Positions 3,341 through 29,081 of a DNA stretch of 32,000 nt are shown piece by piece. The DNA is from Candidatus Velamenicoccus archaeovorus (GTDB taxonomy: Bacteria; Omnitrophota; Gorgyraeia; Velamenicoccales; Velamenicoccaceae). How positions within the stretch are numbered: the stretch's first letter is position 1; every line of letters begins with the position of its first letter. The position numbers and the translations under genes are program-made. The notes below the pieces were generated by a model. The model made no database searches. It was not told the DNA's origin and worked only from the letters and a program-made list of their open reading frames with translations. The stretch is taken from positions 1,440,001-1,472,000 of the forward strand of contig NZ_CP019384.1 in the NCBI RefSeq assembly GCF_004102945.1, written 5' to 3'.

Positions 3341-3428
3341 GGTGCGGACACCTGTTCTCGCTGTGGCGCTCTGCTGCGCCACGGTCGCTCGCTCAAGTGT
3401 CCGTAAAATTTTCCTTTATCAGGAAAAT
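3341..3428 (-). repeat. Structured repeat A1: 63-nt GGACAC...GTGTCC element (3341-3403) plus AT-rich hairpin (3408-3428)
   Basis: 3341-3403 is 62/63 identical to 6098-6160. CGGACAC/GTGTCCG closes a helix around a GTGGCGC-loop-GCGCCAC hairpin. An adjacent hairpin is ATTTTCC-TTTATCA-GGAAAAT. The reverse complement has the same architecture as 4406-4506. Confidence 0.75.
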
Positions 3429-3497
3429 ACACCAAGGAGCGGCGTCTGAGCCAGAGACTCCGGTAATACCCTCTTCATTCCGCACTATTCAAGCCGG

Positions 3498-3842
3498 CTA
3501 CATATTTATCAACCCGGATAGCATTTTTGAAATATCTTCGATGCCCTTCTTGAGTGACTCATTCAACTCTTCGGTGATCAGCTTCTTTCGCTTACATATC
3601 TCCAAAATAGGAACACATTAAAACGCCGAGCCTCTTGCTATTCGAAAAAAATTTATACGATCTGGCTTGTGATATCTGCCGTTGCCTTCGGCTATGTTTG
3701 CCGATATCGATAAAGAAGCTCGATTAAGTTGATCTGCCAGATAATAGTTGCCCTTCGTAAAACCTTCCGTTAATCCGCAAATCTTATCTGCAAAATCAAC
3801 TGCTTTCTTGTAAACATCTAGTTTTTCGAATAAGAATGCCAT
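3498..3842 (-). pseudogene. Four-helix-bundle protein (23S rRNA intervening-sequence protein family) interrupted by an in-frame TAA
   Basis: MAFLFEKLDVYKKAVDFADKI...NRASLSISANIAEGNGRYHKPDRINFFRIARGSAF, then TAA (3618-3620). The same frame continues CVPILEICKRKKLITEELNESLKKGIEDISKMLSGLINM to TAG at 3498-3500. The stop sits where family members usually have Glu (GAA). Confidence 0.75.
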
Positions 3843-3925
3843 AGCTTTTGAAAATCGATAATCGAAAATAGACCGAATGAAAATCTTCCACAATCAAATC
3901 TCAAATTTCGATTTTCGATTCTCTG

Positions 3926-3961
3926 CCATTTTTGCCAGAGTTTTGCTTGGGGCAAAAATGG
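3926..3961 (-). other. 3' trailer hairpin that pairs with the encoded CCA of tRNA-Ser(CGA)
   Basis: CCATTTTTGCC (3926-3936) is perfectly complementary to GGCAAAAATGG (3951-3961). The latter includes the complement of the tRNA CCA end. No U-tract follows on the minus strand. Confidence 0.45.
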
Positions 3962-4048
3962 CGGAGAGTGAAGGATTCGAACCTTCGTACCCCTTGCGGA
4001 GTAACGCGCTTTCGAGGCGCGCGCTTTCAACCACTCAGCCAACTCTCC
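3959..4048 (-). tRNA. tRNA-Ser (anticodon CGA), CCA encoded
   Basis: The reverse complement GGAGAGTTGGCTGAGTGGTTGAAAGCGCGCGCCTCGAAAGCGCGTTACTCCGCAAGGGGTACGAAGGTTCGAATCCTTCACTCTCCGCCA folds as a class II cloverleaf. It has a 7-bp acceptor, anticodon loop CTCGAAA, a long variable arm and a GGTTCGAATCC T-arm. Confidence 0.95.
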
Positions 4049-4087
4049 AAATTTGTTTTTCCGCCGGAGGCGGACCCGCCTTCGGCG

Positions 4088-4173
4088 GGCGAGACCGCCC
4101 TATTTTGAACACCTAGATGTTTTATCCAGTGAAATCCCGTTTCTTTACGGGACAACCGCTCCGGCAACTCTCC
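4088..4173 (-). pseudogene. Degenerate tRNA-Ser-like unit U1 (uninterrupted)
   Basis: On the minus strand it reads GGAGAGTTGCCGGAGCGGTTG, a hairpin (CCCGT AAAGAA ACGGG), then AGGTGTTCAAAA (a decayed T-loop). Its length of 86 nt is similar to tRNA-Ser. It has no 7-nt anticodon loop and no matching 3' acceptor strand. Confidence 0.45.
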
Positions 4174-4227
4174 AAATAAATGACGCGCTTTTCCCACTAC
4201 GCGGGACTCCGCTCATTTCATTCGCTT

Positions 4228-4409
4228 CGCGAGACGCGCTTTTTGAATACCTAAATTTACTATTTTAGCGAAATCCCGCAAAGCGGGACAACCGCCCGCC
4301 ACCACTGCTTCGGCGGGCGGCCTCCAGTAATACGTCGGCGGCCGTGCTCCGATGCTTCAGTGGAGCATGTCCGCCGACGTTCCAGTGGCGGACGCTCCGG
4401 CAACTCTCC
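4228..4409 (-). pseudogene. Degenerate tRNA-Ser-like unit U2, interrupted by a 97-nt palindromic insertion
   Basis: It has the same 17-nt 5' end as U1 (GGAGAGTTGCCGGAGCG). The insertion follows, then GTTGTCCCGC-TTT-GCGGGA and AGGTATTCAAAAA. It is colinear with U1 apart from the insert. Confidence 0.45.
4296..4392. repeat. Small palindromic insertion element, long version, inside unit U2
   Basis: Termini are CCGCCACCACT...CCAGTGGCGGA. It is flanked by CGC (4293-4295) and CGC (4393-4395), whereas the uninterrupted unit U1 has a single CGC (4157-4159). The interior has nested palindromes (ACGTCGGCGG 4332-4341 / CCGCCGACGT 4371-4380; TGCTCC / GGAGCA). Confidence 0.5.
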
Positions 4410-4506
4410 GAGAAATTTTCTGACAAAGAAAATTTCGAGGACACTAAAGCGAGTGTAGGCGCATAAGCGCCACGACCCGACAAGGGTCGTAACGAACATA
4501 GTGTCT
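4406..4506 (+). repeat. Structured repeat A3 (101 nt): AT-rich hairpin plus three-way-junction GACACTA...TAGTGTC element
   Basis: 98/101 identical to 6414-6514. Components are GAAATTTTC-TGACAAA-GAAAATTTC, then GACACTA...[GGCGC ATAA GCGCC][CGACCC GACAA GGGTCG]...TAGTGTC. Confidence 0.75.
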
Positions 4507-4542
4507 ATTGAGCAAACTTATCCTTCGGATACCCCGACAAAC

Positions 4543-5913
4543 CTAAACATGGATATTCTTCATGATCTCGGCCTTCGTGAGATCGATGGATTTCAAGGCC
4601 TCGTCGGCATCCTTATTGTAAAGCCGGAAGAAACGACAGGCATCCTCCATATCCGAAACGTCCTTATTGTCGAGGATCTTGAGGACCTCGCTGCGCACTT
4701 TCAATTCCTTGATGACGTCCAGGGCATTCATGCCGCTGGCGCGCGCCACCTTATCCCGGAAGACGGACGACGGAGAATCTTCGATAAAAGTGCGCGACTC
4801 GTAGTCATACCTCCAGACCGCAGACAAAAGCACCTTCTTCTGTTCCATCCCGGCCGTCTCGGCGATCTCGGAGACAACGCGAAACACCTCGTCCTTGACA
4901 TGGAACTTGACCAAGGTGATGAAAACATCCACCAGATTCACCAGGGTCTCCGGGATATTCATGGGTTCGTTCTGGAGACGGATGATGGCTTCGCGCGCAG
5001 CGGCCGCATGGATCGTCCCCATGCAATACTTGCCGATGTTCATGGCCGTCATCAGATCCTGGGCTTCCTCACCTCTCACCTCGCCGACCACGATACGCTC
5101 CGGCCGCATACGTAGGGAATTCTTCACGAGATCCGCCAGCGTCACTTCTTCATCGCTTTCCATGCGCGACCAGCTGTCTTCGCGCAGCGTATTCAACTCA
5201 AGCGTGTCTTCGATAATGACCAAGCGCTCCTTACTCGGCACAAAACTCAGCAGGGCGTTCAAAAGCGTCGTCTTACCCGCCCCCGGCGCACCCAAAATAA
5301 GGATATTTGCGGGACGGATGGACATCCCTTCCATATAAAGCCAGAACAGCGCCGCGATATCATAGTTCAGGGCCCCCTTTCGGATCAGATCGATGACGCT
5401 CAATGGATTTTCTTTGATCTTGGTGATCGTGATCTGCGGCCCGAACGGGGACATGGCGATATTCACCCGGCCCTGGACATTGGCCAGCTCCAGATTATTC
5501 AGTTTCTTTAACGACGTCCTGCCGGAAAAAACAACCAGTTTCTTGATAAAAACGTCCAGTTCCTTGGGAGTCGTGAAACGTTTGTCCGTCTGCGTCAGCC
5601 CTTTATAGGTGTGATGGATGTAAATAGGCCTCAAAGAATTAATGACAATGTCTTCCACGTCGGGATCTCTCAACAAATCCTCAATGATCCCGTAACTGAA
5701 AAACTTATCGATAAAATTTTCTCTTTCTGCGTCGTTGGAGAGCTCGCTCAACGTCTGGCTCTGCAGGAAAGTATCTTCCTTTGTCGCGCCGTAGAGCTCG
5801 GAAATGACGTCGCTGACGATATTCTTCTTTTCCGAATCATTCTGCAAAAGATTGATGCGGCCAAGGATCTTGTCCAAAATCTTGGCTTCGATATCGACCT
5901 TGCGCTTTTCCAT
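4543..5913 (-). CDS. Type II/IV secretion system ATPase family protein (GspE/VirB11/TadA-FlaI-like)
   Basis: Walker A GAPGAGKTTLLNAL, Walker B-like RLVIIEDTLEL, RMRPERIVVGEVRGEEA and His-box GTIHA. The ORF extends to a TTG at 5940. ATG at 5911-5913 preceded by GGAAAGGTGAGG is preferred. Confidence 0.85.
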   Translation of the reverse strand: MEKRKVDIEAKILDKILGRINLLQNDSEKKNIVSDVISELYGATKEDTFLQSQTLSELSNDAERENFIDKFFSYGIIEDLLRDPDVEDIVINSLRPIYIHHTYKGLTQTDKRFTTPKELDVFIKKLVVFSGRTSLKKLNNLELANVQGRVNIAMSPFGPQITITKIKENPLSVIDLIRKGALNYDIAALFWLYMEGMSIRPANILILGAPGAGKTTLLNALLSFVPSKERLVIIEDTLELNTLREDSWSRMESDEEVTLADLVKNSLRMRPERIVVGEVRGEEAQDLMTAMNIGKYCMGTIHAAAAREAIIRLQNEPMNIPETLVNLVDVFITLVKFHVKDEVFRVVSEIAETAGMEQKKVLLSAVWRYDYESRTFIEDSPSSVFRDKVARASGMNALDVIKELKVRSEVLKILDNKDVSDMEDACRFFRLYNKDADEALKSIDLTKAEIMKNIHV

Positions 5914-6097
5914 AAGCCTCACCTTTCCATGAGCGCACAACTTATGGAGCCGTCACAAAACAGCGAGACGACATAAGTCGTTTGCGCGAATGGATCCCGA
6001 GCCGCCCGCAACTCATTAAAACGGCGAGGGATCTTTTATCATGCGTTGACTTAACCGATGCTAAAAATTTTTCCCTATAAAGAAAAGCGTAAATTAA

Positions 6098-6189
6098 GGT
6101 GCGGACACCTGTTCTCGCTGTGGCGCTCTGCCGCGCCACGGTCGCTCGCTCAAGTGTCCGCCAAATTTTTCGTTATCCGAAAAATTTGG
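6098..6189 (-). repeat. Structured repeat B1: 63-nt element (6098-6160) plus AT-rich hairpin (6161-6189) that overlaps the tRNA CCA end
   Basis: 6098-6160 matches 3341-3403 at 62/63. The hairpin is CCAAATTTTTCG-TTATC-CGAAAAATTTGG, and its last three bases are the complement of the tRNA-Ser(UGA) CCA. Confidence 0.75.
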
Positions 6190-6276
6190 CGGAGGCGGAA
6201 GGATTCGAACCCTCGGTGGACTTGCGCCCACAACGGTTTTCAAGACCGCCGCATTCAACCGCTCTGCCACGCCTCC
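6187..6276 (-). tRNA. tRNA-Ser (anticodon UGA), CCA encoded
   Basis: Reverse complement GGAGGCGTGGCAGAGCGGTTGAATGCGGCGGTCTTGAAAACCGTTGTGGGCGCAAGTCCACCGAGGGTTCGAATCCTTCCGCCTCCGCCA. It has anticodon loop CTTGAAA, a long variable arm and a canonical T-arm. Confidence 0.95.
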
Positions 6277-6417
6277 AAAATTCCAACTCGGTGCATTTTG
6301 AGCACCTTGATGTCATCATCCAGTGAAAGCCCGTTTCTTTACGGGGCAACCACCCGCCACCACTAAGTCGGCGTGCGTCCGCCGAAGCTCCGGTGGCGGA
6401 CGCTCTGCCACGCCTCC
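6277..6417 (-). pseudogene. Degenerate tRNA-Ser-like unit with a 47-nt palindromic insertion (6354-6400)
   Basis: It starts GGAGGCGTGGCAGAGCG, 17/17 identical to the 5' end of the adjacent functional tRNA. The insertion CCGCCACCACT...CCGGTGGCGGA (plus-strand reading) follows. It then continues GGTTG, a hairpin (CCCGT AAAGAA ACGGG), AAGGTGCTCAAAATGCACCGAG. Confidence 0.45.
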
Positions 6418-6514
6418 GAGAAATTTTCTGACAAAGAAAATTTCGAGGACACTAAAGCGAGTGTAGGCGCATAAGCGCCACGACCTGACAAGGGTCGTAA
6501 CGAGCGTAGTGTCT
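6414..6514 (+). repeat. Structured repeat B3 (101 nt), paralog of 4406-4506
   Basis: It differs from A3 at 3 positions. One of these (C to T in CGACCC) keeps pairing as a G-U wobble only if the plus strand is the RNA. A degenerate extra copy of the AT hairpin lies at 6561-6582. Confidence 0.75.
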
Positions 6515-7387: not shown

Positions 7388-8659
7388 CTATCGTTCAATC
7401 CTCTCCAGGCCTCCCATATACGGACGCAACGCGTCGGGAATCACGATGCTGCCGTCCTTCTGCTGGTGGTTTTCAATGATCGCGATGACGGTCCTGGCCA
7501 TGGCCACGCCGGAACCATTAAGCGTATGGAGATACTCAAGCTTCTTGGTCTCTTTGTTCCTGAAACGGATATTGGCGCGCCGGGCCTGAAAGTCGCAGAA
7601 ATTCGAACAGCTCGACACCTCCAGCCACTTGTCCAGGCCGGGGGCATAGGCCTCCAGGTCATAGCACTTGGTCGCGGCAAAGCTGATGTCGCCCGACGCC
7701 AGCAAAACGACGCGATACGGCAGCCCCAGCGCCTGCAGGACGGTCTCGGCATTGCCGACGAGCTTTTCCAGCTCGTCGAAAGAATCCTGCGGCCTGACGA
7801 ATTTCACCAGTTCGACCTTGTCGAACTGGTGCACGCGCACGAGGCCTTTTGTATCCTTGCCGTAGGAACCCGCCTCCCTGCGGAAACATGGCGTATAGGC
7901 GGTGTAATACACGGGCAGAGCACTCTCCTCGAGGACCTCGTCACGGTGAATGTTGGTGACGGGGACTTCAGCCGTCGGGATAAGAAAAAGATCGTCATCC
8001 TTAAGGCGGTACATGTCCTCCTCAAGCTTGGGCAGCTGCCCCGTCCCCGTCATGCTGGCGCGGTTGACCAGCGCCGGCGGCCACATCTCCCTGTAGCCGT
8101 GTTTCGACGTATGCAGGTCAAGCATAAAATTGATCAGCGCCCTCTCCAGCTTCGCCCCCAACCCCTTAAAAAGGACGAAGTTCGACCCCGAAAGTTTGGC
8201 TCCCCGGGCAAAATCCACAATATCCAGATACTCGCAGAGCTCCGTATGAGAGCGCGGTTTAAAATCAAAGGTCTTCGGCTGACCCCATTGCCGGACGATC
8301 TGGTTGTGCGAAGGATCACCTGCAGGGACCGATGTATGGACGATATTGGGGATGACCAAAAGCAGTTTCTCCAGGGACTCTTCCGTCTGACGCAGGCCCG
8401 CCTCGCAGGCATCGATACGGCCGGCAACGTCTTTCATCGTGGCGATCGTCGGTTTAGGGTCCTTCCTTTCCTTGAGGAGCCTGGTGATGGCGTCGTTGGC
8501 TTCATTCTTCTGGCGACGCAGGTCGTCGAGCTCGGTCAGGATGCGGCGACGCTCTTCATCGAGCTTCAAAAGTTCGTCCAAGCTCAATTTCGAGCCGCGC
8601 TTTTCCAGCGATGCCCTGACAAGGTCCGCGTTATCCCGGATAAAACGGATATCTAACAT
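7388..8659 (-). CDS. serS: Seryl-tRNA synthetase
   Basis: 423 aa. It has an N-terminal coiled-coil arm (MLDIRFIRDN...), class II motifs (FRREAGS..GKDTKGLVRVHQFDKVE; GSGVAMARTVIAIIENHQ) and the RBS AGGAGAA. Confidence 0.97.
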   Translation of the reverse strand: MLDIRFIRDNADLVRASLEKRGSKLSLDELLKLDEERRRILTELDDLRRQKNEANDAITRLLKERKDPKPTIATMKDVAGRIDACEAGLRQTEESLEKLLLVIPNIVHTSVPAGDPSHNQIVRQWGQPKTFDFKPRSHTELCEYLDIVDFARGAKLSGSNFVLFKGLGAKLERALINFMLDLHTSKHGYREMWPPALVNRASMTGTGQLPKLEEDMYRLKDDDLFLIPTAEVPVTNIHRDEVLEESALPVYYTAYTPCFRREAGSYGKDTKGLVRVHQFDKVELVKFVRPQDSFDELEKLVGNAETVLQALGLPYRVVLLASGDISFAATKCYDLEAYAPGLDKWLEVSSCSNFCDFQARRANIRFRNKETKKLEYLHTLNGSGVAMARTVIAIIENHQQKDGSIVIPDALRPYMGGLERIER

Positions 8660-9220
8660 TTATTCTCCTGTGGCTTTGAACTTCTTCAAGGCGTCCTGGA
8701 TGATGGAGGCCGGCTTGTCGGCATCGAGGAGACCGCAGAAGACGATTTCGGCTTTCTCGAAGCCCGGGACACCCACACTCCCGGTGCCCGGCGTAAAAAC
8801 CTTCAGGCTCCAGATCCCCAGCCCCTGTTCGATGATGTTCTGATTGACCTCAACATCCGTGATCTTATGAAACGGCACGCTGCGGCGCCGGCGCACAAAG
8901 ATCCCGCCCTCAAAAACGCACCGCTGATTCGTCACGGTGTAATGGAACGTCTCAAGAAGATGACGGTAATAAAACAAAGCACAGGCCAAAACGACCGGCG
9001 CCGAGAAAATGAGGAGAGACGGAACAAGGATAAAGACCGGCTCTTTCATGTGGTGCGCAGCGGCATAGATCACGCAGGCGATGACGGACAGATAAGCCAA
9101 GATGCCGCAGATAACCAAAGACATAAGGATCACCCGCGTCAGGAGCCACATCACATAGATCCTTTTCTCGGGCCTCCCTTCCCATAAAACTTGTTCGCCT
9201 TCCTGCAGCGCAAAAGCCAT
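8660..9220 (-). CDS. Membrane protein with bacterial PH domain (bPH_2 / YdbS-YdbT-like)
   Basis: Two N-terminal TM helices are followed by HYTVTNQRCVFEGGIFVRRRRSVPFHKITDVEV, typical of bPH_2. RBS is AAGGAGGAG. Its stop abuts the serS start codon. Confidence 0.7.
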   Translation of the reverse strand: MAFALQEGEQVLWEGRPEKRIYVMWLLTRVILMSLVICGILAYLSVIACVIYAAAHHMKEPVFILVPSLLIFSAPVVLACALFYYRHLLETFHYTVTNQRCVFEGGIFVRRRRSVPFHKITDVEVNQNIIEQGLGIWSLKVFTPGTGSVGVPGFEKAEIVFCGLLDADKPASIIQDALKKFKATGE

Positions 9221-9280
9221 GTCTCCTCCTTACCCCTTAACAACCCCCAAAGGCCGCCCTTCGCTACGCTCAGGACTCCC

Positions 9281-10741
9281 CTAACCTTTAACAACTCCCA
9301 ATGGTCGCATCCGGCAGACGCGCCTGGCAATGCCGGCGTTGTGCACAACGCCGACGACGTCATTGACATCTTTGTACGCACTAGGGGCCTCTTCCACGAC
9401 CGTCCCGTGCCCCGACGCCATGACCACGATACCCTTGGCCTCAAGTTCCTTCATCAATGCGTGAAAATCCACAACCCTCTTGGCCTCGTGTCTGGACCTG
9501 AGGCGGCCGGCACCATGGCAGGTCGAGCCGAACGTCTCGTCCATCGCGGCCTGTGTCCCGACGAGCAAATAAGAATTGCGCCCCATGTCGCCGGGGATGA
9601 TCACCGGCTGGCCGATTCGCTTGTATCTCTCGGGGACAGCCGGATGTCCTGGCCCGAAGGCGCGGGTCGCTCCTTTACGGTGCACGCACAGCGTGCGTTC
9701 CTCGCCCTTGACGCGGTGCGTCTCGATCTTGGCGATGTTGTGCGCCACGTCATAGACGAGGCGCATCCCAAGCTTCTGCCACGATGAAACAAAAACCTTC
9801 TCAAAAACCTGACGCGCCAGATGCATCAGGCATTGGCGGTTGTTCCAGGCATAATTCGCCGCCGCGCGCATCGCCGCCAGGTAATCCTTCCCCTCGGGCG
9901 ACTCCACGGGCGCGCACGCCAACTGCCTGTCGGGCACATGAATATGGTACTTCTCCAGACAGGTGTTCATCGTTTTCAAAGAATCATCGCAGACCTGATA
10001 TCCCAACCCCCGGGAACCGGAGTGGATCATCACCATGACCTGGCCTTCAACCAGGCCCAAGGCATCCGCTGCATCCCTGTCGTAAAGCTGGTCGATGGCC
10101 TGGACTTCCAAAAAATGGTTGCCCGAACCCAGGGTGCCTGATTGCTGCTTGCCGCGCGCATACGCCCGGTCGGAGACCTTCTCGGGGTCCGCGCCGGCCA
10201 TCGCTCCGCGCTCTTCGGTGGCCTCCAAGTCGTCTTCGGTGCCGTAACCCTTGGCGACAGCCCATCCTGCGCCCTTGACAAGGATCTCTTTTTCTTCCCT
10301 GGCGGTCACGCGGATATCTCCTTCGGACCCGACGCCTGAAGGCACCGCATGGAACAGACCGGCGACCAATTCCTTGAGATGCGGCCTGACGTCTTTCTCA
10401 AAAAGATCAGTCCTTACCAACCGCACCCCGCAGTTGATATCATAGCCGACGCCGCCCGGGGACACCACGCCCCCTTTTTCGATATCCATGGCCGCGACGC
10501 CGCCGATGGCAAACCCGTAACCCCAATGGATGTCCGGCATCCCGAAAGACGCCTTGACGATCCCGGGCAAAAAGGAAACATTCGCCACCTGCTCGGCGGC
10601 CTTGTCGTGGCGGATGTCCTTCAACAGTTTCTCATCCGCATAGATGATGCCGTCGACGCGCATGCCGGCTTTATAGGTCCTGGGGATCCGCCAGCGGTAA
10701 TCGTCAATCTTCTCTAAAGGGCCGTCCCAGATTTGAGACAT
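9281..10741 (-). CDS. rtcB: RNA 3'-phosphate/2',3'-cyclic phosphate ligase RtcB
   Basis: 486 aa with RtcB hallmarks: GYDINCGVR, GSGNHFLEVQ, IHSGSRGLG, CHGAGR, and HRPLGVVKG-like C-terminal sequence. Confidence 0.95.
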   Translation of the reverse strand: MSQIWDGPLEKIDDYRWRIPRTYKAGMRVDGIIYADEKLLKDIRHDKAAEQVANVSFLPGIVKASFGMPDIHWGYGFAIGGVAAMDIEKGGVVSPGGVGYDINCGVRLVRTDLFEKDVRPHLKELVAGLFHAVPSGVGSEGDIRVTAREEKEILVKGAGWAVAKGYGTEDDLEATEERGAMAGADPEKVSDRAYARGKQQSGTLGSGNHFLEVQAIDQLYDRDAADALGLVEGQVMVMIHSGSRGLGYQVCDDSLKTMNTCLEKYHIHVPDRQLACAPVESPEGKDYLAAMRAAANYAWNNRQCLMHLARQVFEKVFVSSWQKLGMRLVYDVAHNIAKIETHRVKGEERTLCVHRKGATRAFGPGHPAVPERYKRIGQPVIIPGDMGRNSYLLVGTQAAMDETFGSTCHGAGRLRSRHEAKRVVDFHALMKELEAKGIVVMASGHGTVVEEAPSAYKDVNDVVGVVHNAGIARRVCRMRPLGVVKG

Positions 10742-10755
10742 AAAACAGGGCTCCG

Positions 10756-11181
10756 TTACACGTCGAAGATCACATGGGCCTGCCAGCGGTTCCGCACCTT
10801 CTTGATTTCCAGCTCATGGTAGGTGACGGCCTTGATCTCGTCTTTGACGGTATAATGTTCCCTGTCAAAAGCGTCGAACAAGACAAAGGCCTTCATCTCC
10901 CTGTCGCCCAGCTCAATAGACTTGATACGGACCAGGACCAGATGCTCGACGCTATAGCAGAAAAGGAGCTCGTCCATCCAGGCCTTCAGCAGGTCCTCGG
11001 GCGCCTCCCCGCAGACGGAGATCTCTTTTTCCGTCAATGCCGCCCCCGGCCTGTTTTTGGTCTTCTCCAGAAGAACCGCAAACATCGCCCAGGCCGCCGA
11101 TTCAAAAAGGTCTTTCAAAGACCGGCCGAAAAGACGTACGGCAACATCTGCCGTATGCTTTAAAAATTCATATCTTTTCAT
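10756..11181 (-). CDS. Archease (RtcB activator)
   Basis: 141 aa. The N-terminal YEFLKHTADVAVRLFG and C-terminal KAVTYHELEIKK motifs are typical of archease. It lies 14 nt upstream of rtcB. Confidence 0.9.
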   Translation of the reverse strand: MKRYEFLKHTADVAVRLFGRSLKDLFESAAWAMFAVLLEKTKNRPGAALTEKEISVCGEAPEDLLKAWMDELLFCYSVEHLVLVRIKSIELGDREMKAFVLFDAFDREHYTVKDEIKAVTYHELEIKKVRNRWQAHVIFDV

Positions 11182-26612: not shown

Positions 26613-28808
26613 TCATTTGACGAAAAGCATGTCCCTGTACTTCGGCAGGTCCCAATGCTCGTCGGAAATAACACCTTCAAGAAGATCGGCATGCTTACGG
26701 ATATGCTCCATGATGGGCTTGAGATCCGTAAAATACCTGTGGGCCTTCTCGTCTTCCTCAAGACCCTTGGTCTCTTCCAAAAACTGCATCATGGCCTTGG
26801 CGTTCTTGCGGACATAATAGATCATCTCCGTCACTTCGGAAAGATGCACTTTCATGTCGACCACGGACTCCTCGAGGAATTTCAGGCCGGCCGTACTCTC
26901 CAGATGGACGATATGTTCCAGGTTTTGCGAAAGCAGACCCTGATAATCGAAGGCATTGGGCACGATGCAGGAATTAACCATCTCATTCAAGGTCTTGGCC
27001 TCGATCTCCAGGAGCTTGATATACATCTCCAGCCATATCTTGTAACGCGCCTTCAGTTCCTCGCGGTTAAAGACCTTGTACTTCTCAAAAAGGGCGACAT
27101 TTTCTTCCTTTACAAGCGCCTTGAGGGCCTCGGAGGTCGACGGCTCGTTCGGCAACCCTCTCTTGGCCGCCTCTTTCTTCCACTCCTCGGAATAATTATT
27201 CCCTTCAAAACGGATCTTTTTGGTCTCGCGGATCACCTCGGCCAAAACGGCAAGCACGGCCGTATTGAAATCCTTGGATTTCTGCGCCGCTTCGATCTTG
27301 GTACGCACATAATCCATGGAATCCGCAACGATCGTATTGATGACCGTAATGGCGGTCGAGATATTCTGCGACGAACCCACGGCGCGGAACTCGAACTTAT
27401 TGCCGGTGAAGGCAAAAGGCGACGTGCGGTTCCTGTCGGTCATGTCCTTATTGACCAAGGGCAGACGGGCGACACCCAGGTCCATGATGTCCTGGCGGCT
27501 GATCTGGGTCTTCTTGCCCTTCTCAACGGTGTCGAGGATCTGTGTCAACTGGTCGCCCAGAAAGACGGAGATGATCGCCGGCGGCGCTTCATTGGCGCCC
27601 AGACGGTGTTCGTTGCCTGCGGAGGCCACGCTGGCGCGCAGGAGGTCCGCGTGCGTATCGACGGCGCGCAGGACGGCGACCAGGATCGCCAAAAACTGAA
27701 GGCTGTCCTCGGGCGTCTTGCCGGGATTCAACAGGTTATTGCCCTTATCGTCGGACATGGACCAGTTGAGATGTTTCCCCGAGCCGTTGATGCCGGCAAA
27801 GGGCTTCTCATGAAGCAGGCAGACCATATCATGGCGCAGGGCCATCTTTTTCATGATCTCCATCAGGAGCTGGTTGTGGTCCGCCGCCAAGTTCGATTCC
27901 TCGAAGATCGGCGCAAACTCATACTGGTGAGGCGCGACTTCGTTATGGCGCGTCATGACCGGGATGCCCAGCTTATAGGCCTCCTCGCCGACCTCGTACA
28001 TGTAATTCACGACCCTCTCCTTGATCGAGCCGAAGTACTGATCTTCCATCTGCTGGTCTTTGGGCGAAGGGGCGCCGACAAGAGTCCGTCCGGTCAACAA
28101 CAGGTCCTGACGCAGCCTGTAGAAGTTCTTGTCGATCAGGAAGTATTCCTGCTCGGGGCCGCACGTGGAAAAAACCTTCCTGACATTCTTGCTGCCGAAG
28201 AGCTTGAGGAAGCGAACGGCGGATGCGCTCAGGGCCTCGATGGAACGCAGATGAGGCAGTTTCTTATCCAACGCATAGCCGTGATAGGCGACGAAAATCG
28301 TCGGGATACACAATGTCTTGCCCAGCTTGCTTTCGATGATGAACGCCGGGCTCGTCGGGTCCCACGCGGTATAACCGCGCGCCTCAAAAGTCGTGCGGAT
28401 GCCGCCCGAAGGGAAACTCGAGGCGTCGGGCTCGCCCTTGATGAGCTTGCTTCCGGAAAACGTCTCAATCACCTTGCCCGGCGAAGAAGCAAAAGAGATG
28501 AAACTGTCGTGCTTCTCGGCCGTCATGCCCGTCATGGGCTGAAACCAGTGCGTGTAATAGGTGGCCCCCCGCTCGACCGCCCATCTCTTCATGGCATCGG
28601 CGATCTCATTGGCCTGGACGAGCGATATCTGCTTACCCTCTTCCATCCACGCCTCGAAGGCCTCGAAGGTCTTCTTGGATATATGCTTTTTCATCGTCGG
28701 GACGCTAAAGGTGTTTTCGCCGAAGTAGCTGGAGACCTTCTTGAATTTCTTGACCTCGGGAAAAGGCTTCGTCTCGATCGACTTAAGTATTTCTTGTCTG
28801 ATATTCAT
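26613..28808 (-). CDS. glnN: Glutamine synthetase type III
   Basis: 731 aa, a length and N-terminal region (GATYYTHWFQPMTG) typical of GSIII. Catalytic-domain motifs include HNEVAPHQYE and NGSGKHLNWS. Confidence 0.95.
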   Translation of the reverse strand: MNIRQEILKSIETKPFPEVKKFKKVSSYFGENTFSVPTMKKHISKKTFEAFEAWMEEGKQISLVQANEIADAMKRWAVERGATYYTHWFQPMTGMTAEKHDSFISFASSPGKVIETFSGSKLIKGEPDASSFPSGGIRTTFEARGYTAWDPTSPAFIIESKLGKTLCIPTIFVAYHGYALDKKLPHLRSIEALSASAVRFLKLFGSKNVRKVFSTCGPEQEYFLIDKNFYRLRQDLLLTGRTLVGAPSPKDQQMEDQYFGSIKERVVNYMYEVGEEAYKLGIPVMTRHNEVAPHQYEFAPIFEESNLAADHNQLLMEIMKKMALRHDMVCLLHEKPFAGINGSGKHLNWSMSDDKGNNLLNPGKTPEDSLQFLAILVAVLRAVDTHADLLRASVASAGNEHRLGANEAPPAIISVFLGDQLTQILDTVEKGKKTQISRQDIMDLGVARLPLVNKDMTDRNRTSPFAFTGNKFEFRAVGSSQNISTAITVINTIVADSMDYVRTKIEAAQKSKDFNTAVLAVLAEVIRETKKIRFEGNNYSEEWKKEAAKRGLPNEPSTSEALKALVKEENVALFEKYKVFNREELKARYKIWLEMYIKLLEIEAKTLNEMVNSCIVPNAFDYQGLLSQNLEHIVHLESTAGLKFLEESVVDMKVHLSEVTEMIYYVRKNAKAMMQFLEETKGLEEDEKAHRYFTDLKPIMEHIRKHADLLEGVISDEHWDLPKYRDMLFVK

Positions 28809-29081
28809 GACTGATTCTCCTTAATTCCGCCTCTGGCGGAATTAGGCCCTCCGCTATGTGGAATGCGGAGGCCTACCCTTTCTGGGTTAACTCCGAGTGC
28901 AGCTGAAAAATTTCTGGTTGCCCGTCTGAGCTCTGCGAAGGCTGGGTGCAGACAGAAATTTTCAGGCCCTCCGCTTATTCGGTATTGCGGAGGCCTACCC
29001 CTTGTGGGTTAGCTGTTTACACGAGGAGTAACGTTTCTTTCCTTAATCCTTCCGCCTCTGGCGGGGTCTTTCTTTACTTCC
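28809..29081 (-). promoter_or_regulatory. Structured 273-nt leader of glnN with a duplicated two-hairpin motif
   Basis: Two copies lie at plus-strand coordinates 28844-28891 and 28964-29013. Each reads AGGCCCTCCGC-loop-GCGGAGGCCTACCC-loop-GGGTTA. A central 13-bp helix pairs 28903-28916 with 28953-28965. A hairpin AATTCCGCC-TCT-GGCGGAATT (28823-28843) abuts the SD (28817-22), and a related hairpin lies at 29052-29064. Confidence 0.55.

Follow-up and report, generated by a model that had tools for sequence, protein, structure and literature searches.

Truncated copies of tRNA genes that lie beside intact tRNA genes are left behind by duplication or by integrative elements for which tRNA genes are the target. 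tRNA-like sequence can also serve as a cis element in bacterial transcripts: the thrS operator mimics the anticodon arm of tRNA-Thr, and T-box leaders read tRNA. Here, we describe a locus that shares features with both. It lies in a 32,000-nucleotide (nt) stretch of the genome of Candidatus Velamenicoccus archaeovorus, phylum Omnitrophota (contig NZ_CP019384.1, positions 1,440,001 to 1,472,000), which we call the window, and comprises three tRNA-Ser-like units (U1, U2, and U3) upstream of two tRNA-Ser genes, all on the minus strand (Table 1). Each unit is the 5' part of a tRNA-Ser, broken off before the 3' strand of the T stem. An insert of ~50 nt, X, sits in its D loop immediately after GGTTG, and wherever the anticodon loop persists, a second insert, Y, a hairpin related to X, lies between anticodon positions 35 and 36. 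The reading that we tentatively favor is that the units are a cis-acting leader RNA derived from tRNA-Ser and multiplied by unequal crossing-over, that is, truncated paralogues of the adjoining tRNA-Ser genes that may act as a scaffold on which selection maintains a hairpin module, within the 5' leader of tRNA-Ser(UGA) and tRNA-Ser(CGA) genes.

The likeness to truncated tRNA copies is considerable: the units are partial and collinear copies, they carry exact short direct repeats, fragment arrays exist in relatives (3' halves in the loci L006 and L047), and the locus is prone to mobile DNA. Unlike such copies, they are 5' parts stacked upstream rather than 3' parts downstream, with no cargo or integrase between the repeats, and every unit carries the same inserted hairpin module at fixed positions, under purifying selection. 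As with the thrS operator and T-box leaders, there would be a structured leader with tRNA-related sequence and a cognate synthetase gene nearby. However, the units precede the tRNA gene itself and not an mRNA, they mimic the 5' half (acceptor 5' strand and D arm) and not the anticodon arm or the elbow contacts, and neither a T-box nor any other Rfam match was obtained. Repetitive extragenic palindromes, bacterial interspersed mosaic elements, and miniature inverted-repeat transposable elements are similarly GC-rich, imperfect palindromes with variable loops, and small hairpins like those at our locus do occur elsewhere in the window; unlike dispersed repeats of this kind, every copy of X or Y found was inside tRNA-Ser-derived sequence, at the same position.

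Archaeal tRNA genes with multiple noncanonical introns and split or tri-split tRNA genes occur in Thermoproteales, Nanoarchaeum, and Caldivirga (reviewed in PMC4090602). Our units share with these the inserts in the D and anticodon loops of a tRNA-like sequence and the proximity of RtcB and Archease genes. They differ in being bacterial, in lacking a bulge-helix-bulge, in having incomplete exons and intact genes with the same anticodons next to them, and in that the synteny with RtcB does not depend on the units. The searchable literature on Omnitrophota tRNA introns, on RtcB/Archease together with tRNA-Ser, and on bacterial pseudo-tRNA or split tRNA yielded nothing comparable. Arrays of tRNA fragments are already known; what is new is a conserved, structure-constrained insert module on them that is specific to tRNA-Ser and to one phylum.

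We resolved the anatomy of the units by comparing them with relatives (L036, L006/L047, L007, L045, and L078). A unit opens with tRNA positions 1 to 20, ending GAGCGGTTG. Module X follows and consists of a hairpin, P1 (YCCCGY/RCGGGR with a loop of 3 to 9 nt), the block UUUCRCU, a short hairpin, P2, and AGGUGYUC. The D-stem 3' strand and anticodon 5' strand then run as far as YUYG, where module Y begins (CGGAGCGAA..GAGCGGAG, then a TCCCGCC...GGCGGGA hairpin), after which the tRNA resumes with AAA and the anticodon 3' strand. The unit breaks off at a variable point in the variable arm or T loop, and an A/T-rich spacer leads to the next GGAG. U1 retains the anticodon-arm remnant GGGCGGTCTCG with a second hairpin insert next to it; in U3, the anticodon arm is gone, and the D-stem 3' strand runs directly into ACCGAGTTGGAAT, which is left over from the end of the variable arm and the T loop. 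In U2 and U3, a palindrome, Z, is interposed between GAGCG and GTTG (99 and 49 nt, respectively). Identical unit sequences are present in independent NCBI, JGI, and ENA assemblies, so the units are not assembly artifacts; a contig of an independent Logan assembly, L075, agrees with the window sequence but reaches no farther than the 96-nt repeat before U2, ending within copy A of that repeat.

That the units derive from tRNA-Ser by duplication is evident from their collinear homology with tRNA-Ser alleles, which they match at up to 21 of 21 sites for positions 1 to 21 and up to 15 of 15 for the D-stem 3' and anticodon 5' strands. They are not canonical tRNAs: ARAGORN and the Rfam tRNA model (RF00005), among the checks proposed in an initial annotation of the window, scored only the two intact genes in the window and called no unit (Rfam E values up to 10 in the window and up to 5 in relatives). 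The same annotation had correctly reported the 5' duplications, namely, the 17-mer GGAGAGTTGCCGGAGCG at 4173-4157 and 4409-4393, 100% identical between U1 and U2, and GGAGGCGTGGCAGAGCG at 6417-6401, which equals the 5' end of tRNA-Ser(UGA) (6276-6260) at 17/17 positions. The agreement of the U1/U2 17-mer with the 5' end of tRNA-Ser(CGA) is 14/17 and not, as given there, 13/17. A hairpin (CCCGT/ACGGG versus CCCGC/GCGGG) and a GGTRYTCAAAA block are indeed found in all three units, and the matching acceptor 3' strand is indeed missing, as is the T-stem 3' strand. Two assignments need to be replaced: the hairpin placed where the anticodon arm should be is P1, at the start of the D-loop insert right after GGTTG, and AGGTGTTCAAAA, read as a decayed T loop, is the 3' end of X, continuing into the D-stem 3' strand. 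The unit delimited at 4088-4173 takes in most of U1 but misses nearly all of the hairpins at the Y site (4060-4089) and the spacer.

Evidence for selection on X comes from the orthologous units of L045 and L078. Over 65 nt of X, these show no substitutions, against a neutral expectation of 13 to 23; they differ by one indel in a T run and by an 86-nt palindrome inserted in L078. Approximately 18 nt on the 5' side of X are also identical. By comparison, third codon positions of the adjacent genes differ by 20% in SerRS and 36% in ORF214 (an open reading frame of the same locus), the upstream spacer differs, 3 of 92 positions differ in the downstream tRNA, ~5 changes fall in the 35 nt that follow X, and L045 has lost most of Y. 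Because X is unchanged against 20 to 36% divergence at third positions, with change just outside X, plain neutral decay is rejected for X.

More distant comparisons give the same impression. X diverges by 13% between U3 and L006, where third positions diverge by 40 to 46%. Between L007 and L045, the unit core is 83% identical, similar to the tRNAs (80 to 88%) and above the coding genes (67 to 73%), and other intergenic DNA cannot be aligned. X of U2 and X of one L078 unit (L078_B) are 86% identical, at a distance at which third positions are saturated (~67% different in SerRS, window versus L045).

The variation that X does show fits a folded strand. P1 is paired in 98.5% of cells across the copies, and at two of its pairs both partners have changed (CG in 7 copies versus UA in 4; UA in 8 versus CG in 2), around a loop of unrelated sequences. 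P2 is a 3- to 4-bp hairpin in which pairing is kept with differing sequences (GAUG/CAUC, AAUG/CAUU, AAAU/AUUU, and AAUU/AAUU). A helix that would close X is compatible with nearly all copies, the deviations being mostly G.U. For this helix, two to three alternatives are equally compatible with the data; D-loop GAGCG, for example, may pair with UGCUC at the end of X (an invariant G.U plus several G.U variants) or with CGCU just after P1. As G.U pairs would be A.C mismatches on the opposite strand, they favor an RNA of the tRNA-sense strand. Extra palindromes occur only at internal loops or junctions of the X fold (Z, found in U2 and U3 and as a remnant in L006, and the 86-nt palindrome of L078), which resembles the way expansions behave in structured RNAs. 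X and Y have a core hairpin in common, and the D-loop-like GAGCGGAG precedes Y; together, these explain the long-range X-Y pairing seen in minimum-energy folds.

To determine how widely X occurs, exact-pattern scans, which diverged copies could escape, were run over one representative genome for each of 185,579 GTDB species and over JGI metagenome contigs; further loci were reached via ORF214 homologues, and all fetched Omnitrophota loci were then searched with a profile. In the species-representative genomes and JGI metagenome contigs, genuine pattern matches came from Omnitrophota loci only, the remainder (41 of 44 genome hits and one metagenome hit, L046) being chance matches in unrelated DNA. 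The profile search found 12 copies of X in six nonredundant Omnitrophota genomes: three in the window, four in L036, two in the L078 group, and one each in the L006 group, L007, and L045. The conserved block and hairpin, whose absence from other genomes the initial annotation named as an argument against function, are present in five other genomes. All 12 copies are in sense orientation directly upstream of an intact tRNA-Ser(UGA) or tRNA-Ser(CGA); both tRNA-Ser genes of L078 are preceded by a unit or units of their own. Outside tRNA-Ser loci, X was found nowhere, whether in the window, in the fetched loci, or, by exact pattern, in the species-representative genomes, the JGI metagenome contigs, or viral contigs. 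In the viral contigs, X gave chance hits only, and a 14-mer of Y gave at least 120 hits, as chance predicts, none with the context of Y.

A different arrangement was seen in a more distant relative, L070, where the region upstream of tRNA-Ser(UGA) (9400-9720) holds three copies of a different ~35-nt repeat (TTCGGGGCCAAAATTCCGGGATATTAAGYGG) together with a tRNA-Ser-like GGAGAGGTGGC start and a P1-like GGTTGTCCCG..CGGGA hairpin. This region looks like a diverged or decayed unit array.

If the units are a leader, they would be transcribed together with the downstream tRNA, on the strand of the SerRS-ORF214 operon, and X would fold as a closed domain in the pseudo-D loop and act in cis on the precursor RNA. 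X could then be a processing, insulating, or terminating element. Alternatively, the copy of the acceptor 5' strand in the leader could compete for the acceptor 3' strand of the tRNA. In 7 of 11 units, the first 7 nt equal the acceptor 5' strand of a functional tRNA-Ser that lies downstream in the unit's own array, and in the predicted fold of U3 plus its tRNA the leader copy pairs with the tRNA 3' strand. The 3' ends of both tRNA-Ser genes in the window, including the encoded CCA, also form the 5' arms of long A/T-rich terminator-like hairpins (TCCGCCAAATTTTTCG/CGAAAAATTTGGCGGA), so that the acceptor 3' strand has a third possible pairing partner in the precursor. Among the explanations offered by the initial annotation (decayed duplicates, integration footprints, and a conserved precursor leader), it is the last that conservation, compensatory changes, and the fixed place upstream of tRNA-Ser(UGA/CGA) support best.

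Several observations weigh against a functional leader. The main weakness is polymorphism for presence and absence among close relatives. Units are absent from the fetched loci L048, L050, L051, L055, L057, L069, L071 to L073, L080, and L082. L048 is the closest relative found (its ORF214 protein is 96% identical), and it, L050, and L051 carry an unrelated region of ~90 nt before the equivalent tRNA-Ser(UGA). This variation implies that the module is dispensable or can be replaced by another type of leader. In addition, in several units (U3, L006, and L045), Y and all sequence on its 3' side have decayed or disappeared, and these parts are less constrained or unconstrained. The copies number only a dozen or so, which leaves covariation statistics weak outside P1, and the units match none of the known RNA families in Rfam. 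The match and predicted pairing of the 5' strands would be equally expected from recent duplication and are not evidence of function.

The patchy distribution among close relatives would also suit a selfish origin, which we consider unlikely but the best of the alternatives. X and Y would be small mobile hairpins or relics of mini-introns homing to the D loop (after CGGTTG) and the anticodon loop (35/36); copies that are hit would die and persist only beside an intact copy, and conservation would reflect recent spread rather than a role in the host. The insertion points are constant across several tRNA-Ser allele backgrounds, both UGA and CGA, no target duplication is seen at the insert borders, and Y, read on the complementary strand, comes after CGGTTTT and opens with the hairpin of X, which itself comes after CGGTTG. 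X and Y are ~85 to 90% identical between deeply separated lineages, and small GIY-YIG genes adjoin tRNA-Ser in L057 and L070. However, a dead insertion would not stay identical between orthologues while neighboring synonymous sites diverge by 20 to 36%. X was confined to tRNA-Ser loci in the scans described above, which could miss diverged copies; in the window, the units have no linked gene for a transposase or endonuclease, and no intact tRNA-Ser with X or Y was seen.

Alternatively, the units might be plain relics, functionless leftovers of tandem duplication and recombination of tRNA-Ser with common palindromic insertions, their conservation due to recent shared ancestry; we rate this as slightly less probable again. 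The initial annotation's notion of decayed tandem tRNA duplicates holds for the origin of the units, which are collinear with tRNA-Ser alleles and have no T-stem or acceptor 3' strands, but not for X, which changes far more slowly than neutral sites. Truncation is variable, ARAGORN and the Rfam tRNA model do not score the units, the 3' halves stacked downstream of tRNA-Ser in L006 and L047 show visible decay, close relatives differ by gains and losses of units, and small TCCGCC..GGCGGA hairpins like those within Z and U1 recur in other intergenic regions of the window. For X itself, this explanation is contradicted by the substitutions expected and not seen between L045 and L078, by the compensatory changes in P1, and by 86% identity across lineages with saturated third positions. 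Within one unit, moreover, conservation is high in X and low just outside. A neutral pseudogene is rejected on the divergence of X, although the parts 3' of X decay. In none of the relatives do intact tandem tRNA-Ser genes occupy the position of the units, the arrangement that, according to the initial annotation, would have pointed to plain pseudogenization.

The units have a mosaic composition. The tRNA-derived segments flanking X or Y often match different tRNA-Ser alleles. U3 follows the UGA allele of the window before X (21/21 with Z skipped) and the UGA allele of L006 and L055 after it; U2 joins a beta-type CGA 5' segment to an alpha-type anticodon stem, as in the functional gene of the window; and in units b and c of L036 the allele type switches at Y. 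The flanks of U2 and U3 are 90 to 97% identical, while the 17-mer differs at 5 positions and fits the local context in each case, and U1 groups with U3 by X sequence and with U2 by 17-mer. Such mosaics of alleles imply recombination, judging from the sequences. Copy numbers from 0 to 4 and exact 5' duplications could have arisen by unequal crossing-over or slippage at the shared 5' segment of 17 to 21 nt, and the mosaics by recombination inside X and Y, the longest stretches common to the units. Ordinary recombination would then be the simplest account of both copy number and mosaicism.

Other parts of the locus have also been reshuffled. Two partial tRNA-Ser 3' halves are stacked downstream of tRNA-Ser(UGA) in L006 (1-450, minus strand; the same as L047 1368-1760); they start with GGTCTTG, have a Y-type insert at anticodon 35/36, and extend as far as the tRNA 3' terminus. 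One has the same sequence as the 3' half of tRNA-Ser(UGA) in the window, the other combines two alleles across Y, and the second copy is decaying in L047. In L078, a 559-amino-acid (aa) large serine recombinase (4129-6050; Resolvase, Recombinase, and Zn-ribbon domains) with ~150-bp inverted repeats on either side sits directly after the CCA end of tRNA-Ser(CGA), its called frame crossing the tRNA in antisense; L045, a close relative, lacks this gene. Around a T2SSE ATPase gene, tRNA-Ser(UGA) and tRNA-Ser(CGA) have exchanged places between lineages (L055 and L057 versus the window, L047, and L069), and in L045 the two tRNA-Ser genes adjoin each other, separated by 5 nt and by no ATPase gene. 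Genes found beside tRNA-Ser include the small GIY-YIG genes already mentioned and, in L080 and L082, RES/HEPN and nucleotidyltransferase genes. The tRNA-Ser locus is thus a hot spot of rearrangement and mobile DNA in relatives.

It is in this setting that integration scars have to be considered, an explanation that we find doubtful. The units would be attL-type hybrids left by elements that recombined with the 5' 17 to 21 nt of tRNA-Ser, with X, Z, and Y as recombinase arm sites and the element bodies deleted. Exact 17-nt direct repeats do surround segments of 124 to 219 nt, the 96-nt repeat followed by the core and Z resembles an attP-type junction with near-identical arms and a core matching the local tRNA, and the allele mosaics at X and Y and the mobile genes of L078, L080, and L082 would suit it. 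However, only unit sequence and no cargo lies between the repeats, and no recombinase is encoded in the 32 kb; L045 has a unit without a recombinase, and that of L078 is at the 3' end of the tRNA rather than at the units. The 3- to 9-nt loop and compensating stem of P1 fit a folded strand and not fixed double-stranded binding sites, constraint on X is unexpected for scars, and no viral contig contained X or an extended Y. The integration footprints suggested by the initial annotation thus receive no support from the window, in which no integrase, transposase, or reverse transcriptase is encoded.

Very improbable is an intron or split tRNA, with X and Y excised by a nuclease or ribozyme, the exons joined by RtcB-Archease, and the downstream tRNA possibly giving a shared 3' half: the fixed insert positions, the unit acceptor 5' strands that often match the downstream 3' strand, and the Archease and RtcB synteny with SerRS, ORF214, and tRNA-Ser in all relatives examined would agree with it, but that synteny is equally present in genomes without units, intact intron-free tRNA-Ser(UGA) and tRNA-Ser(CGA) genes are always present, no bulge-helix-bulge (4-bp helix, 3-nt bulges) could be drawn at the X and Y junctions by inspection of sequences and folds, which involved no dedicated search tool, and no tRNA can be assembled, since T-stem and acceptor 3' strands are absent in 13/13 units and the anticodon arm is absent in U3, L006, and L045. 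As to the enzymes of archaeal-type splicing, a splicing endonuclease and RtcB, the loci examined have RtcB and Archease genes close by and show no EndA-like gene.

Other identities were rejected more simply. Rfam searches of the window, L007, L036, and L078 at gathering and permissive thresholds returned only intact tRNAs and no T-box, transfer-messenger RNA (tmRNA), ribozyme, intron, or Y-RNA; the other output consisted of subthreshold sX4 and Plastid-psbl-rps4 matches overlapping intact tRNAs and scattered hits at chance level. Known self-cleaving ribozymes (hammerhead, twister, pistol, hatchet, and HDV-like) had no match at E values up to 10 in the window and up to 5 in L007, L036, and L078. 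A group I core needs at least ~200 nt, and Y has 30 to 70. ARAGORN found no tmRNA. A promoter flagged once within X of U2 (TTGTCC-N18-TAAAAT) would have a spacing of 18 to 24 nt via the P1 loop, and in L078 the 86-nt insertion falls between the hexamers. A small open reading frame (AAGGTG, then ATG, noticed by inspection in some units) lacks its ATG in U1, U2, and the AT-rich lineage. Similarities to box C/D, boxA, and tmRNA are short words in some copies and are not conserved. Integron attC sites and IS200/IS605 ends are rejected as well, as there are no core sequences, no integrase or TnpA, and no dispersed copies.

Table 1. Coordinates of the units, tRNA-Ser genes, and other features in the window
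Feature	Positions	Strand	Details
U1	4049-4173	(-)	
U1, tRNA positions 1-21	4153-4173	(-)	
U1, X	4106-4157	(-)	Including shared GGTTG
U1, D-stem 3' strand, anticodon 5' strand, CTCG	4090-4105	(-)	Anticodon-arm remnant
U1, Y site	4060-4089	(-)	Two small hairpins (second hairpin insert)
U1, spacer	4049-4059	(-)	
U2	4174-4409	(-)	
U2, 17-mer	4393-4409	(-)	
U2, palindrome Z	4294-4392	(-)	
U2, GGTTG and X	4244-4293	(-)	
U2, D-stem 3' strand, anticodon 5' strand, CTCG	4230-4243	(-)	
U2, Y	4192-4229	(-)	
U2, AAA, anticodon 3' strand, spacer	4174-4191	(-)	
U3	6277-6417	(-)	
U3, 17-mer	6401-6417	(-)	
U3, palindrome Z	6352-6400	(-)	
U3, GGTTG and X	6299-6351	(-)	
U3, D-stem 3' strand fused to variable-arm-end/T-loop remnant	6277-6298	(-)	AAATGCACCGAGTTGGAATTTT; no anticodon arm
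96-nt repeat, copy A	4410-4505	(-)	Upstream of U2; 97% identical to copy B
96-nt repeat, copy B	6418-6513	(-)	Upstream of U3; imperfect palindrome GACACTA...TAGTGTC and A/T-rich hairpin
Functional tRNA-Ser(CGA)	3959-4048	(-)	CCA encoded; ARAGORN; Rfam tRNA model, 61.5 bits
Functional tRNA-Ser(UGA)	6187-6276	(-)	CCA encoded; ARAGORN; Rfam tRNA model, 57.6 bits
Terminator-like hairpin, tRNA-Ser(UGA)	6157-6193	(-)	
Terminator-like hairpin, tRNA-Ser(CGA)	3920-3967	(-)	
~57-nt palindrome, copy 1	6103-6159	(-)	After tRNA-Ser(UGA) terminator
~57-nt palindrome, copy 2	3346-3402	(-)	Before permease gene
Archease, RtcB, (bPH), SerRS, ORF214, tRNA-Ser order	7388-11181	(-)	
23S-rRNA-intervening-sequence-protein gene (PF05635)	3618-3893	(-)	Region 3497-3904
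Tandem ~55-nt motif copies	28830-29064	(-)	In glutamine synthetase leader
Type III glutamine synthetase gene	26613-28808		

The genes around the units lie on one strand in the order Archease, RtcB, bPH, SerRS, ORF214, U3 with tRNA-Ser(UGA), a T2SSE-type ATPase, U2 and U1 with tRNA-Ser(CGA), a gene of the 23S-rRNA-IVS-protein family (IVS, intervening sequence), and a permease. ORF214 encodes a 205-aa membrane protein with no Pfam match. The order Archease, RtcB, (bPH), SerRS, ORF214, and tRNA-Ser is kept across divergent Omnitrophota (L048, L053 to L057, L069, L070, and L076 to L084), in many of which ORF214 overlaps the end of serS, and this synteny is independent of the presence of units. The RNA ligase operon and the genes for serine tRNA and its synthetase are thus tightly linked.

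Repeated elements other than the units are also present. In copy B of the 96-nt repeat, the 3' arm of the A/T-rich hairpin extends into the GGA of U3. An imperfect palindrome of ~57 nt (GGACACTTGAGCGAGCG..GTGGCGC..GCGCCAC..GTGTCC) occurs twice, with 96% identity over 72 nt; related palindromes lie inside both 96-nt copies, and a diverged version is found in an equivalent place in the distant relative L045 (12960-13025). This palindrome may be a conserved structured element in its own right. The PF05635 gene directly after tRNA-Ser(CGA) has an open frame of 91 aa that covers only profile positions 1 to 69 of 106, whereas 135 aa are called in the public record. A frameshift is possible, and the gene is absent from the corresponding position in L047/L052. 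Elsewhere in the window, the leader of a type III glutamine synthetase gene holds two tandem copies of a ~55-nt motif (AACCCA.AA.GGGTAGGCCTCCGC..GCGGAGGGCCT) flanked by CCGCCAGAGGCGG hairpins. The motif had no Rfam match at E values up to 10 and could be an uncharacterized cis-regulatory RNA.

Returning to the tRNA-Ser-derived leader, it is possible to imagine a more elaborate role, although we hold this to be improbable: a new bacterial riboregulator of tRNA maturation, in which the pseudo-tRNA half, X as sensor or effector, and the second acceptor 5' strand would act as a gate on the processing of tRNA-Ser(UGA/CGA) by RNase P, perhaps in connection with SerRS and RtcB-Archease, for example, under damage or shortage of tRNA-Ser. 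Whatever its role, X offers a concrete object for studying the control of pre-tRNA folding and processing: in ~65 nt, it combines a defined hairpin with single-stranded blocks that do not vary. It is also important to point out to annotators that arrays labeled as "tRNA pseudogene" may conceal selected elements. Were X and Y selfish instead, they would be unusually small and strictly tRNA-Ser-specific mobile sequences. If X is a functional leader, this would be a rare case of a bacterial tRNA gene whose own leader contains a module of tRNA origin for regulation or processing, and X would be an undescribed structured RNA motif specific to tRNA-Ser loci in Omnitrophota, a phylum that has no cultured model organism.

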